From: an uncultured archaeon
GTDB taxonomy: Archaea; Asgardarchaeota; Hermodarchaeia; Hermodarchaeales; Hermodarchaeaceae
Assembly (NCBI GenBank): GCA_964347045.1
Contig: CAYFXC010000005.1
Location: forward strand, 98,282-162,281
DNA: 64,000 nucleotides
Direction of reading: 5' to 3'
This document shows, in pieces, positions 22,576 through 27,250 of this stretch (within the stretch, counting starts at the first letter, position 1; each line of letters begins with the position of its first letter). Both the position numbers and the translations under genes were made by a program. The notes below the pieces were generated by a model. It searched no databases. It saw nothing but the letters and a program-made list of their open reading frames with translations, and was not told the origin of the DNA.

Positions 22576-22692
22576 ATTTAAAAGGAATTAGTATACAAAA
22601 TTCTTCAAGATATAATATTCTCACCTCGTGAGAAAAGGAGATTAAAAACAAAAACCGTCCTATCTCTCTTTGAGAACAACAAGGTGGTAAAT

Positions 22693-23337
22693 ATGGCTCA
22701 TCAAGATGTAATAACATTTGAACCTGAACGCATTAAGATTATATATGATCGAAAGATTAACGAGATCTTATTAGACCCGAACCATCTTCCCATTATTCGG
22801 GCACTCCGGAAGGGGCCCATGACGGTTCGGGAAATCGAAGAAGCATATTCTAAAGCAGCGGAAGATTCTGATGAAATTGAAGCAAAATCTGATAAAACTA
22901 TTTATCGTTATTTGAAAGTATTAGAAAAATCAGATCTTGTTGTTCCTGCAGGTCAACGGGTTGTAATTGGTAAAACAGCAACTGAAACGCTTTTTTCACG
23001 AACTGCTGAAGCATTTATCACAGGGCAAAGTGAAAAGGAATATTGGAGCTGCGACATTGGAAAAGAACTCGCTGAAAAAATGGCTCAGATACTCGGTAAA
23101 ATCGTTGGTGACAAAAAACCAGACATTAATTGCATAGTCACATTCATGAACGACTTCGATGCAATTGGTAACAAATACATTGTCAGCCTAATCGAAGAAG
23201 CTGATGATGAAATGATTGATCTCATCACTGATCTTGACTGGAAGTACAAAGATAAAATACTCAATTATGTCAGTTTCTTCGCGACTGTTCTAAAAAATCC
23301 TGCGCTCTTTGAAAAGCTTCAAGCCTGCTTTAAATAA
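22693..23337 (+). CDS. Winged-helix (ArsR-like) DNA-binding protein
   Basis: IIRALRKGPMTVREI...KTIYRYLKVLEKSDLV; SD GGTGGT before ATG 22693. Confidence 0.75.
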   Translation: MAHQDVITFEPERIKIIYDRKINEILLDPNHLPIIRALRKGPMTVREIEEAYSKAAEDSDEIEAKSDKTIYRYLKVLEKSDLVVPAGQRVVIGKTATETLFSRTAEAFITGQSEKEYWSCDIGKELAEKMAQILGKIVGDKKPDINCIVTFMNDFDAIGNKYIVSLIEEADDEMIDLITDLDWKYKDKILNYVSFFATVLKNPALFEKLQACFK

Positions 23338-23353: not shown

Positions 23354-24664
23354 TTAGCTTCCCTCTTTGCTTTTGGTGGGTTGCTCCTCGGATTCGGGTT
23401 GACTACGCCGATTACGGATCTGAAAGTATACTTCTATACAAAGGGGAATTGTAACAACTACGCTCAATAAGATAAATGCAATAATTGTAATCTGTTCAAA
23501 TGTTAATGGAAAACGCGGAGTGGCTGGTGTCTGATACCCAATCGCTGAGATGATGTAATCTTCCATGATAGTTGAAAAGGAAGCTTCTTCGTACCAAGCA
23601 GTAAATACTACAACAAGATTGTGTTCAGGAACGACGTTGATCTGTTGACCATGATAGCCAATCGCTAGATAGGTATTGATTGGTAAATTTAGCCACCACT
23701 GGTATCCATAGCCTAATGTATCTGTATCATTATATGGTGTAGCGTGATTTGCAGTGGATTCATTTATCCAAGACTGAGGAATTAATTGTTGATTGTCCCA
23801 AGTACCATTATTCAAATATAAGAAACCGAACTTTGCCATATCTCGTGGTGTGAGGTGCAGGTCGGAGCACCCAATAACGACACCTTGGGGGTCAGTATCC
23901 CATTGGTAATCTGTAATTCCGAGGGGTGAAAATAGGTGGCTATCTGCATATGAAAGAGTAGTGCTACCTACAGTCTGGTTGATAATCATTGAAAGAAGAT
24001 GAGATCCGCCTGAATTGTAATCCCATATCTCACCTGGATTATATCTCATGGGTTGGTCCAACACATATTGCACCCAATCGGCGCTATCATTCATATAGGC
24101 ATAACTGCTGGTCGGACCATAAGGCCATTCATACCAAGCCAAACCAGATGTCATTGTCAACACCTGTTTCAAAGTAATGGCTTCCTTCTCCGTAGTGAGG
24201 TTGGCAATTGTACGGTCTGGGAAGAAACTCACCAAAGTTTCATTAACGCCTGCAATATGCTCTTCTTCAATCGCCATCCCGATCAACGCTGATATTATAC
24301 TTTTTGTACACGAGAAAATGTTGATTTGCTGATCTTGATCATATGCGGGGTCGTAATATGATTCCCAAACAATGTATCCGTTACGGATTATCAGAATAGA
24401 GCGTATCAAATTTCCCCATGATAATCGCTGAATATATCCTTCCATGGCTTGCAGCTGAATCGAACTCATACCTTGTGCTTCTGGGCTCGTTGAACGCCAA
24501 CCATCTGTTGGCCAGTAATCGGGGGCTGCCGAAACACGAAATGCTGGTTGATTGTTTTCTGCTATCGATGGGCTTATCACTAGCAAGGCCAACGCTACAA
24601 TCATGATGAACCAAAGTTTGCTTCTTAAAGCCATACAGACCGACCTAGAAGTTGAGTGTTTCAC
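23354..24664 (-). CDS. Membrane-anchored serine hydrolase (beta-lactamase/AmpC family)
   Basis: Signal peptide, SCTK (SxxK), LTMTSGL, DYNS, YGYQWW, C-terminal TM helix. Confidence 0.9.
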   Translation of the reverse strand: MKHSTSRSVCMALRSKLWFIMIVALALLVISPSIAENNQPAFRVSAAPDYWPTDGWRSTSPEAQGMSSIQLQAMEGYIQRLSWGNLIRSILIIRNGYIVWESYYDPAYDQDQQINIFSCTKSIISALIGMAIEEEHIAGVNETLVSFFPDRTIANLTTEKEAITLKQVLTMTSGLAWYEWPYGPTSSYAYMNDSADWVQYVLDQPMRYNPGEIWDYNSGGSHLLSMIINQTVGSTTLSYADSHLFSPLGITDYQWDTDPQGVVIGCSDLHLTPRDMAKFGFLYLNNGTWDNQQLIPQSWINESTANHATPYNDTDTLGYGYQWWLNLPINTYLAIGYHGQQINVVPEHNLVVVFTAWYEEASFSTIMEDYIISAIGYQTPATPRFPLTFEQITIIAFILLSVVVTIPLCIEVYFQIRNRRSQPESEEQPTKSKEGS

Positions 24665-24878
24665 TCCTCATCCAAAGTTTCATCTTATATGCTCATGGAA
24701 TGTGGCAAGAAATCGTTTGCCTTGTTGTGTGTAAGAGTTTCGTGTTGGTGGGGGCTAGTATGGTCTTATTTTCTCATCATATAGTAGTCATTATCTCCAA
24801 AACCGATACATTTATATTATAGTTGTAGATAGTATTCTCATCCCGTAAGAATATCGGGACATGTGGTGGTAAAGAATA

Positions 24879-25016
24879 ATGTCAAAGAAAAAAATCAACT
24901 TCGCTGGAATTGGTATCGGTGAACGAGCTGCCCTTGGGGGTCGCAATCCTCATCCAACCCCGAACTTTCAGCGAGCATACAAAGTCATGGCCTCGCGAAG
25001 AGGTTCAAAGTGGTGA
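24879..25016 (+). CDS. Micro-ORF 1 (45 aa, basic): MSKKKINFAGIGIGERAALGGRNPHPTPNFQRAYKVMASRRGSKW
   Basis: TATA-like TTTATAT at ~24811, SD GGTGGT at ~24865-24870; below the ORF-track cutoff. Confidence 0.55.
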   Translation: MSKKKINFAGIGIGERAALGGRNPHPTPNFQRAYKVMASRRGSKW

Positions 25017-25052
25017 ACGCCGAATAAATAATCAACTAAAGTGGTGATAAAT

Positions 25053-25133
25053 ATGGCAGTTAATAAGAAAGCTCATTATCAAGCTCATAGTAAAAATAAC
25101 TTCGTGTACACTCTAGTCCTTGTTCGAAGGTAG
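25053..25133 (+). CDS. Micro-ORF 2 (26 aa): MAVNKKAHYQAHSKNNFVYTLVLVRR
   Basis: Canonical SD GGTGA at 25043-25047, 5 nt before ATG. Confidence 0.45.
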   Translation: MAVNKKAHYQAHSKNNFVYTLVLVRR

Positions 25134-25199
25134 CCTGAATACAATCATGAAGAAATAAACCGGAGAGGGGCTCTTCCTTTATAATGATGTCACGAACTC

Positions 25200-25319
25200 G
25201 GGTCTTCCGGAACTTACAAGCTACTCAATTCCGTTGTCTACCTAGTAGGCCCACAAACCTCATTGGCGCAAATAACCATTCCTCACTTCTCCTCTTGGCT
25301 AGCAGTTTCCGGAAGGCCC
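25200..25319 (+). ncRNA. Putative structured RNA element (~120 nt closed by a 13-bp helix)
   Basis: GGGTCTTCCGGAA (25200-25212) pairs with TTCCGGAAGGCCC (25307-25319), with one G-U pair; followed by a T-tract. Confidence 0.45.
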
Positions 25320-25320
25320 A

Positions 25321-25335
25321 TTATTTTTTTTATTC
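25321..25335 (+). terminator. Oligo-T terminator after the structured element
   Basis: TTATTTTTTTTATTC directly after the long stem. Confidence 0.5.
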
Positions 25336-25711
25336 TAGTTCTGTGTAGGTGATTGAAATGGGGGAGTTCAATAAGACATTTCAAACCGGAATTGGCACGG
25401 AATTAGTTTTTTCAAGGTGGTCTTGGATGTTAAAACCCACTGCATTGTGCCTTTTCCTATTCAATCAAAGACGAATTTACCACCGCGAATAGGGCGATCC
25501 TTTCGTCAATAAAGGCGTTAGGTGGGTTTTAGCATCCATTTCACAATTTCCATTATAGTGGTTTTTGAGATCTTGAGAAATGAAAAAAGTATAAAAACCA
25601 CTTCGATACTTAACACCGTTAACTCCAAAGTGTCTCAAGTGTTAACTAATACTTACAAAGCACCGGTTCTATCAGCGACTATAATTGGCAAAAAAATAAG
25701 GGGTGACTGTA

Positions 25712-25858
25712 ATGGTACGATACGAATTAAACAAATGCAAAGTACCCGTCTCTGAAGATGAGCGTACCAAAAATTCTCCGGGGCTTGCCGAATGCCGCAA
25801 TCCCAAAGCACTTTATAAAGAACCCTTTGATAAAGCGCTTCTCTTTCAGCGACGCTAA
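25712..25858 (+). CDS. Micro-ORF 3 (48 aa): MVRYELNKCKVPVSEDERTKNSPGLAECRNPKALYKEPFDKALLFQRR
   Basis: Strong SD GGGGTGA at 25700-25706; downstream hairpin CGAACA/TGTTCG (25890-25910) plus T-rich tract. Confidence 0.6.
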   Translation: MVRYELNKCKVPVSEDERTKNSPGLAECRNPKALYKEPFDKALLFQRR

Positions 25859-26041
25859 GAAATTGGAATAAATCTTTCCGTTTGCGGGTCGAACACCTAC
25901 TGGTTGTTCGTCCTCCCATTTCTTTTTATCCAAAATTTATTTTTCAATGCCAAAAGGGAAAGGTTTTTACACAACATGAGATAACATTCTCACTGCATTA
26001 GAAAACTAATTTCTTGCACTTATTCACAGGCAAATAAACAG

Positions 26042-27250
26042 GTGAAAAACTTGCCCTCAAAAGTCTATTTTGGATCCATCCAACAAGGTCGAGACTCCGC
26101 ATTTGCCTCCCTTGCTGCTAAACTCGAAAAACTCCTCGAACACCTTGATTTCTCCACTATCGAAAAAAACGACAAGGTCGCTATTAAAATGCACCTGGGA
26201 TTTCATGATGGGTATCAAACTGTACCAGTCTTTTTTGTCCGTCGCATTGTCAAAGCCGTCAAAGAAGCCGGAGGTTGGCCATTTATCACAGATAATCCCA
26301 CCGCTGTGTACAATGCTGTAGAAAGAGGATACACCCAAGAAACTTGCGGCTGCCCCCTAATCCCGGTAGCCGGAGTGAAAGATGGATACATCAAACCCGT
26401 CAAAATCAACTTCAGGAATGTTAAAGAAATCGACATGGGCGGTGTCCTCCACGATGCAGAAGCCTTAATCGATCTCACACACGCTAAAGGCCACGCCAAC
26501 TGTGGTTATGGCGGCGCTGTCAAAAATATCGCTCTCGGTGGGTATTCTGGTCCTTCACGATGGCACCGTATCCATGGTGTCGAAAATGCAGACCTCTGGT
26601 GGGATGCTAAGAAATGCTCACCTGAACACGCTCAAAAACTTGTAGAATCTTGCCCATACAATGCTCTCACCTATGATAAAGAAAAGCATCAACTCAATAT
26701 CGCGCGATTTTCATGCCACTACGGTAACTGTACCGAATGCATCAAAGCCGATAAAGACATTGGCTCTCTTAACCTTACCCCTGAGCAATTCGAAGCCTTT
26801 CAAGAATTGATGGCTATCGCGGCTAAACACATCATCGACACCTTTGATGAGAACAAACGCTTTTACATTAATGTCGCAATTGACATTACACCTCATTGTG
26901 ATTGCGTGGGGCTCATTCAACCTGCAGTAGTTCCGCACATTGGTATTCTCGCTAGTCGAGATATCATAGCGTTGGAGCAGGCGACCTTGGATATGGTTGC
27001 GGAGAAGGGTCTGATTGAAAGCGAGATTCCGCTATATTTTCAACATGTGAACTTAGATCCAGCTGCTGATCTACATCCGTTCCAACGTTTATGGGGTCCG
27101 TACAAGAATCCATATCTAGTGACAAAGCATGGCGAAAAACTAGGATTAGGTCAGAGAGAATATGAACTGGTTGAAATTCTTTCGCCTAAAAAGACTATGA
27201 AGATGAAACCGCCCAAACAACAGTTTGAAAGGGCCCCATCTTTCTTCTGA
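26042..27250 (+). CDS. DUF362 domain Fe-S protein
   Basis: VAIKMHLG, THAKGH..CGYGGAVKNIALG, ITPHCDC, IGILASRD. Confidence 0.85.
   Translation: MKNLPSKVYFGSIQQGRDSAFASLAAKLEKLLEHLDFSTIEKNDKVAIKMHLGFHDGYQTVPVFFVRRIVKAVKEAGGWPFITDNPTAVYNAVERGYTQETCGCPLIPVAGVKDGYIKPVKINFRNVKEIDMGGVLHDAEALIDLTHAKGHANCGYGGAVKNIALGGYSGPSRWHRIHGVENADLWWDAKKCSPEHAQKLVESCPYNALTYDKEKHQLNIARFSCHYGNCTECIKADKDIGSLNLTPEQFEAFQELMAIAAKHIIDTFDENKRFYINVAIDITPHCDCVGLIQPAVVPHIGILASRDIIALEQATLDMVAEKGLIESEIPLYFQHVNLDPAADLHPFQRLWGPYKNPYLVTKHGEKLGLGQREYELVEILSPKKTMKMKPPKQQFERAPSFF

Follow-up and report, generated by a model that had tools for sequence, protein, structure and literature searches.

Asgard archaea have been mined for clues to the origin of eukaryotes, and their small proteins and non-coding RNAs are nearly unexplored and often unannotated. 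The locus described here raises the question of whether an apparently empty gap of 1.38 kb between two ordinary genes holds genes of its own. It lies in a window of 64,000 nucleotides (the whole stretch of DNA that was analysed; positions 98,282 to 162,281 of the forward strand of contig CAYFXC010000005.1, assembly GCA_964347045.1) from an uncultured archaeon of the Hermodarchaeaceae, whose source genome, a metagenome-assembled genome (MAG; G000 below) of 2.58 Mb, is 89% complete and includes the window within its contig C5. The gap is flanked by a beta-lactamase-family gene on the - strand (23354-24664) and a gene for an iron-sulfur (Fe-S) protein of the DUF362 family on the + strand (26051-27250; Pfam PF04015, E 2.3e-30); features within it are given by window position and lie on the + strand. 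A sequence-only reading of the window had proposed three micro open reading frames (ORFs) on this strand, and they are present exactly as described at 24879-25016 (ORF1), 25053-25133 (ORF2) and 25712-25858 (ORF3). The present analysis adds to that reading the in-frame conservation of the ORFs in relatives, a multi-copy protein family, and an RNA behind ORF2 that recurs behind paralogous genes. The 1.38 kb region is a small gene cluster and no empty spacer, and it exposes an overlooked microprotein family maintained by selection and, alongside it, a structured RNA that recurs; the two are confined to a single Asgard lineage.

Coding evidence for the three micro-ORFs

The DNA of the gap is kept in 14 of 14 other species of the genus, as judged by DNA comparison, and tblastn shows all three reading frames preserved in relatives, with frames and lengths retained in up to 12 species. 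The sequence-only reading had staked its coding claim on homologs with preserved frames and on a coding-type substitution pattern; the former were found by tblastn and profile searches, and the latter is present in ORF1 and ORF3. Across 11 orthologs of ORF1, which encodes 45 amino acids (aa) with a net charge of +9, the ratio of nonsynonymous to synonymous substitution rates (dN/dS) is 0.115 in frame as opposed to 1.95 and 2.16 in the shifted frames, and the variable columns at codon positions 1, 2 and 3 number 20, 14 and 39, respectively. The corresponding values for seven orthologs of ORF3 (48 aa, net charge +4, two invariant Cys) are 0.134 in frame versus 1.25 and 2.71 out of frame, and 17, 12 and 37 variable columns. 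Purifying selection spans the whole of both peptides. By these substitution patterns ORF1 and ORF3 are, beyond reasonable doubt, protein-coding genes under purifying selection.

Signals for translation initiation accompany all three frames. The Shine-Dalgarno (SD) sequences of the GGTG type that had been claimed to precede each ORF do so at 9, 5 and 5 nt from the respective ATG. The GGTGG of ORF1 (24865-24869, ATG 24879) is intact in eight of the 12 copies aligned, three others having the weaker forms GATGG or CGTGG; the GGTGA of ORF2 (25043-25047, ATG 25053) appears as GGTGAT or GGTGGT 4-6 nt ahead of the start in 10 of 11 loci and as a weakened AGTGAT in the remaining one (L010); and the GGGGTGA of ORF3 (25700-25706, ATG 25712) is represented by TAAGGGGTG in five of seven aligned loci, with variants in L003 and L009. 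The pattern GGTGR-N4-10-ATG occurs six times on the + strand of the gap versus about 0.6 occurrences expected, counting both strands, while the whole window contains 43 versus 25.9 expected; SD-ATG pairs are over-represented in the gap approximately tenfold.

Conservation of the region purely at the level of DNA or RNA, with untranslated ORFs, would agree with its richness in conserved structured RNA and promoter elements, as well as with a fourth SD-led ORF at 25358 that is not conserved in frame. On the other hand, it leaves unexplained the third-position excess in ORF1 and ORF3 (39 and 37 variable columns versus 14 and 12 at position 2, with dN/dS near 0.12) and a protein-level similarity that persists among paralogs with no remaining DNA alignment, which renders this explanation close to negligible for the cluster as a whole. 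For ORF2 alone, non-translation is a serious possibility, since its dN/dS of 0.33-0.48 lies close to one off-frame value.

ORF2, of 26 aa, evolves fast, and its N-terminal half is almost unconstrained. The F....LVRR end to which the sequence-only reading had drawn attention proved durable: in 11 of 11 loci an SD, the ATG, an open frame of 26-27 codons and a terminal [FY]x[FY]xL..xRR directly before the stop are kept, the sole length difference being 3 nt. The resemblance of ORF2 to the family of ORF1 is limited to the C-terminal third. In three species, one ordinary family gene at the same locus replaces ORF1 plus ORF2, and for this reason ORF2 may be viewed as a decayed original copy. It is probably translated under weak constraint and most likely represents a truncated paralog, that is, a C-terminal remnant that is still translated.

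The fourth SD-led ORF (ATG 25358, 44 aa) was rejected as a gene because it is broken after five codons in three of seven orthologs and its C-terminal frame varies among species. The stretch at 25348-25492 (+) nevertheless retains a conserved SD-like site and the ATG, and may constitute either a translated mini-ORF or a feature at the RNA level only.

The microprotein family and its range

Members of the ORF1 family are 43-50 aa long and very basic; among 1.84 billion representative proteins they form 17 true clusters of 40-77 aa, an eighteenth match having been dropped as a repeat-protein artefact. From a Lys-rich N-terminus, the consensus proceeds through the motif x-ERA-x3-[C]-RNP-x3-P and a hydrophobic stretch to SRR as the last residues, with E, R, N, P and R invariant. 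ORF1 of the window carries Gly at the conserved Cys position, at which the other relatives have Cys except for one copy (L018) from the sister genus g2.

A profile of ORF1 relatives matches six to seven places in the genome that contains the window, including one pseudogene, which amounts to five to six further paralogs of ORF1. Of the 18 other genomes in this GTDB family, 17 contain relatives by profile search, with one to six copies each, and 282 genomes from 29 other families of the phylum gave no match; the records of family proteins derive from MAGs of Hermodarchaeota or Promethearchaeota. As far as profiles reach, the ORF1 family is multi-copy and restricted to Hermodarchaeota (Asgard archaea). 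The three exact peptides of the window are absent from about 15 billion predicted proteins. The core of the earlier proposal, an unannotated paralogous family of basic micropeptides, is thus borne out by coding-type substitution, by paralogs and by relatives in 17 of 18 genomes, with the correction that some members (P0002-P0018) had already been called by gene finders.

Library searches placed the family nowhere. Neither Pfam nor NCBIfam matched ORF1, and 20 family members gave no Pfam match even at E up to 10. PADLOC contained no family match at E up to 1, PHROGs returned only noise (E 0.08-0.27), and no relatives of the family occur in the viral contigs of IMG/VR. The best score of a feature search in the ESM Atlas (0.89) remained under the useful level, matches in the PDB were at chance level only, and the literature held nothing on small proteins of Hermodarchaeota.

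Within the family, about 12 sequence clusters can be distinguished, and each of the main clusters groups orthologs from different species: an ORF1/GSKW type occurs at two loci, and the 'a' and 'b' types form a conserved tandem pair. In G000 this pair is situated at C2:116299-117122 (-), where a 'b' gene is followed by an 'a' gene about 500 bp apart, each with its own RNA of the type described below; the same arrangement is found in about nine other genomes and adjoins AsnC-type helix-turn-helix (HTH) genes and a gene for a secreted protein. The contexts of two distant family members revealed no shared neighbour. A decayed copy at C6:44754-44879 (-) of the same genome contains in-frame TGA and TAA stops (...KIAKM*VAERFVSGGRNPNPFVTR*), from which it follows that family copies without selection decay.

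The affiliation of ORF3 is less direct. ORF3 is single-copy and present in 12 of 15 genomes of the genus, always at the same locus directly before the DUF362 gene, with which it is syntenic across the genus; one ortholog is annotated elsewhere merely as 'hypothetical protein'. It aligns to the ORF1 family over ER...CRNP...RR with an hhalign probability of 64%. The sequence-only reading had based kinship on a shared RNP, F-x-[RK]-A and RR pattern, of which E-R, [C]-R-N-P and the terminal R-R are indeed conserved in the ortholog sets of both ORF1 and ORF3. The F-x-[RK]-A element did not hold up as a shared trait: it is conserved in ORF1 orthologs only, and at its position ORF3 orthologs feature L/W/M/Y-x-x-[AS]-L. 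The alignment lends moderate support to the view that ORF3 is a diverged single-copy relative of the ORF1 family.

Small, clustered, paralogous ORFs with a conserved Cys also call to mind precursors of secreted or modified peptides, i.e. ribosomally synthesized and post-translationally modified peptides (RiPPs) or bacteriocin-like products, and the ...ALGG of the window's ORF1 resembles a double-glycine cleavage site. Relatives, however, have GC, AC or GA at that site instead of GG, conservation extends across the whole peptide with no division into leader and core, and a signal sequence is missing. Moreover, the neighbours differ between paralogs, and no gene for a modifying enzyme, a protease or a transporter accompanies them consistently. 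A precursor role is considered highly improbable.

A structured RNA behind family genes and its possible partnership

Transcript ends had been predicted behind ORF2 and ORF3, and both predictions agree with the present data. ORF2 is followed by a 120-nt structured RNA (25200-25319; minimum free energy (MFE) -33.2, z -3.1), which is closed by a helix of GGGUCUUCCGGAA and UUCCGGAAGGCCC and occurs in multiple copies, and then by a T8 tract (25324-25331), the probable transcription stop of the ORF1-ORF2-RNA unit to judge from its sequence and from T-rich runs behind most copies of the RNA. Behind ORF3, a terminator-like hairpin with a T-rich run occupies 25886-25927 (fold z -3.0), and orthologs possess a hairpin of differing sequence at the same place.

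A covariance model, R1, was built on the GGGUCUUC...GAAGACCC element, which measures 95-135 nt, precedes a T-tract, and begins 67 nt past ORF2, 52-68 nt past the stop of most paralogs and 100 nt past it in one copy. R1 recognised copies in 15 of the 18 related genomes within the GTDB family and in none of 22 genomes outside it. Of the 38 matches, 29 follow a family gene on the same strand at a distance of 56-230 nt. Pairing in the closing helix reaches 95.6%, and five of its 11 pairs are changed on both sides, values far above shuffled and slid controls, albeit in an alignment that was itself fitted to the model; its G-U pairs are functional on the + strand only. No TATA box is found between a family gene and its RNA. 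No Rfam family was recognised, either in the window region (E up to 10) or in six other R1-bearing loci (E up to 1), and a tRNA scan of the region found nothing. For the protein family and the RNA alike, the libraries searched contain no detectable relative.

Two minor observations pertain to the RNA itself. A downstream gene starting within the R1 3' strand was considered as a feature of the element and rejected, being true of one copy only. The 5' flank at 25181-25199 (+), (A)CGAUGAUGUCACGAAC, is almost invariant in orthologs of the ORF1 locus and looks like a C-box or K-turn; the paralogous RNA copies lack this flank, and a D box was not observed.

Taken together, the reading favoured here, tentatively and as somewhat short of probable, is that the microproteins are small nucleic-acid-binding proteins, probably RNA-binding, for which the co-transcribed RNA is the leading candidate partner. 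Its grounds are the charge of ORF1 (+9 in 45 aa), basic tails, a probable lack of order and a co-transcribed RNA. The peptides would be disordered alone and fold on a nucleic-acid partner; AlphaFold2 models of ORF1 and ORF3 are of low confidence (predicted local distance difference test score 59), as expected for such peptides. R1 stands out as candidate partner because it would be carried on the same transcript as the family gene, about 60 nt behind most of them, and the two could act together in a ribonucleoprotein (RNP) or in autoregulation. The step from a real gene family to RNA binding is one that we infer. A more far-reaching version, in which each family gene is paired with the RNA behind it as a dedicated RNP (a 45-aa basic peptide on its own RNA of about 120 nt), duplicated as several cognate pairs per genome and specific to Hermodarchaeota, appears unlikely at present.

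Several observations weigh against the favoured reading. The family has no significant homology to any nucleic-acid-binding family, and ORF2 is only weakly constrained, with a frame specificity that is unclear relative to one off-frame value. In addition, nine of the 38 R1 matches lack a family gene upstream, one of them following a beta-lactamase-family gene, and 37 of 66 protein matches are without a detected R1, including the second ORF1-type locus and most copies of genus g2. Hence, the linkage between gene and RNA could reflect only the duplication of whole transcription units with a terminator-type 3' element. The orphan copy in question (G000 C23:11777-11926 (+)) starts 10 nt after the beta-lactamase-family gene and keeps the inner motifs AAUCCGUUGUCCACC..GUAGG and CCUCUUGG, while its closing helix is changed on both sides and still complementary; counterparts with no microprotein gene upstream exist in G003, G004, G007, G009, G010, G011, G013 and G014.

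Weak likeness to known proteins enters on both sides of the balance. With the whole-family profile as query, the top four PDB matches all fall on HU proteins, over the arm that embraces DNA, at E 0.8-1.0, and the family core (F-x2-[FI]-x-V-x-ERAA-x3-RNP) aligns gap-free and with the same spacing to the HU/IHF arm (PF00216), ERAA-x3-RNP standing opposite R-x2-R-x2-G-R-N-P-x-T-G. This match is at chance level: the hhalign probability amounts to 2-5%, as tested with a narrow gammaproteobacterial HU profile (close relatives only), and three of 300 column shuffles were as good in a post-hoc test. HU/IHF and the microproteins are both very basic, yet the former are about 90 aa long and begin with a helical dimerisation body, whereas the latter are half as long as HU with only a Lys-rich tail before the motif; the window's genome contains no HU gene. 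A profile of ORF1 orthologs only picks, at a similar E-value (0.2), an unrelated motif, the GCSNPHPH active site of GalT (HIT superfamily), in which A-A-M-G-C-S-N-P-H-P-H corresponds to A-A-L-G-C-R-N-P-H-P-T of the ORF1 subgroup. The GalT resemblance is an 11-residue match at chance level, whose H-P part the wider family does not conserve; it illustrates how weak short matches of this kind are. HU may serve as a lead for the core mechanism, a basic hairpin gripping a helix, rather than as a sign of membership.

The regular order in which a short ORF with a terminal ...RR-stop is separated by about 60 nt from a large helix and an oligo-T tract, with same-strand genes downstream and an ORF2 of which frame and end are kept and sequence is not, is also what cis-acting leader or arrest peptides would display, whose translation controls the downstream RNA and T-tract by attenuation. 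Two points disfavour such control: the stop precedes the helix by more than 50 nt (52-72 nt), outside the reach of a terminating ribosome, and purifying selection acts on the whole of the ORF1 and ORF3 peptides and holds across paralogs; ORF3 and the downstream genes furthermore have conserved promoters of their own. Attenuation is accordingly regarded as quite improbable. Much the same applies to the idea of selfish addiction or conflict modules, in which a small basic protein would be the toxin and a structured RNA its protection, or vice versa. Units of protein plus RNA that are multi-copy and lineage-restricted, occur as tandem pairs and leave an occasional pseudogene would suit such modules, but the loci keep a stable synteny over 9-14 species and are not patchy, PADLOC, PHROGs and viral contigs offer no match, and the RNA is sense and downstream, neither antisense nor repeated, so that modules of this type are judged very improbable.

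With regard to RNA binding as the favoured function, the closest parallels among known systems are partial. Small basic ribosomal proteins such as eL39 and eL41 resemble the microproteins in being short (25-50 aa), rich in Lys/Arg and probably disordered unless bound to a partner, but are universal, in contrast to a multi-copy family of divergent paralogs from one GTDB family with no NCBIfam or Pfam match. Small RNAs embedded in or derived from 3' untranslated regions (UTRs) of prokaryotes are, like R1, situated behind a coding sequence, without a promoter of their own and with an oligo-T end; R1 differs in its recurrence behind paralogous microprotein genes and in having no Rfam match. If proteins and RNAs are partners, they would represent a new class of small RNP without a described counterpart; otherwise, the locus is a clean example of real genes hidden in 'intergenic' MAG DNA. 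The coordinates, the profiles A2 and A3 and the covariance model R1 make both proteins and RNA testable.

Promoters, a shared motif and neighbouring features

The TATA-like box that the sequence-only reading had placed ahead of ORF1 is found at 24811-24819 (TTTATATTA), where it is invariant in seven orthologous loci and preceded by a conserved CCGATAC; its position suggests that it acts as an element of a promoter, P1, for the ORF1-ORF2 transcript. A putative promoter of ORF3, P3, at 25590-25623 consists of a TATA box (25590-25597, TATAAAAA) and the palindrome CTTAACACCGTTAAC (25609-25623), which correspond to the ortholog-conserved blocks AAAGGyATATAAAC and ACTTAACAGTGTTAAC. In the layout that these elements would define, P1 drives ORF1, ORF2 and the 120-nt RNA up to the T8 tract, P3 drives ORF3 up to its hairpin and T-run, and the DUF362 gene comes next, with a promoter sharing an operator-like motif with P1.

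This motif, TAGATAGTATTCTCA at 24826-24840, lies just 3' of the P1 TATA box and is conserved in orthologs, and a motif scan detected a second, near-identical and likewise conserved copy (GAGATAACATTCTCA, 25978-25992) behind the TATA-like AAAGGTTTTTAC of the DUF362 gene. The region of the second copy is the best-conserved DNA of the locus in distant members of the genus (88-91% identity). The 15-nt pattern [TG]AGATANNATTCTCA occurs only at these two places in the 2.58 Mb genome, each copy 6-12 nt after a TATA-like box. Common to the promoters of the ORF1 unit and the DUF362 gene and found nowhere else in the genome, the motif thus indicates shared dedicated regulation; it is probably a private operator, for which the HTH gene at 22684-23337 is a candidate regulator.

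The shared motif likewise bears on a role of the microproteins in acting on proteins, for example as regulators or assembly factors of enzymes such as the DUF362 Fe-S protein, with the RNA being only a common 3' end. Besides the genome-unique motif, the constant position of ORF3 directly before DUF362, the conserved Cys of the family along with the two Cys of ORF3, and the presence of R1 behind an unrelated gene speak in its favour. Conversely, the other paralogs have unrelated neighbours and lack the motif, the Cys is lost in the window's own ORF1, and an extreme positive charge with a Lys-rich tail is more typical of nucleic-acid binders. A function directed at proteins is therefore deemed rather unlikely, and binding of nucleic acid continues to be the preferred reading. 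For DUF362 itself, the literature gives only its status as a clan-mate of the LarA N-terminal domain.

Further features accompany the promoters. The palindrome CTTAACACCGTTAAC lies about 12 nt past the ORF3 TATA box, reads ACTTAACAGTGTTAAC in orthologs, and could be a second operator. Between P1 and ORF1, a 5' UTR stem-loop (24841-24859), UCCCG-UAAGAAUAU-CGGGA, has an invariant loop, and both sides of its stem change in G009, G011 and G014; in the window alone, its fold is no better than that of shuffled sequences (z -0.1). A second strong RNA-like structure at 25424-25538 (+) is based on an 18-bp helix of GGAUGUUAAAACCCACUG... with ...UAGGUGGGUUUUAGCAUCC (MFE -44.1, z -4.9); the genome contains no further copy of it, Rfam gives no match, both arms and the inner UUUACCACCGCGAAU block are conserved in orthologs, and its G-U pairs work on the + strand only. 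Finally, the DUF362 gene more likely starts at TTG 26051, with AGGTGA 5 nt before it and TTG at this position in orthologs too, than at the first in-frame GTG at 26042.

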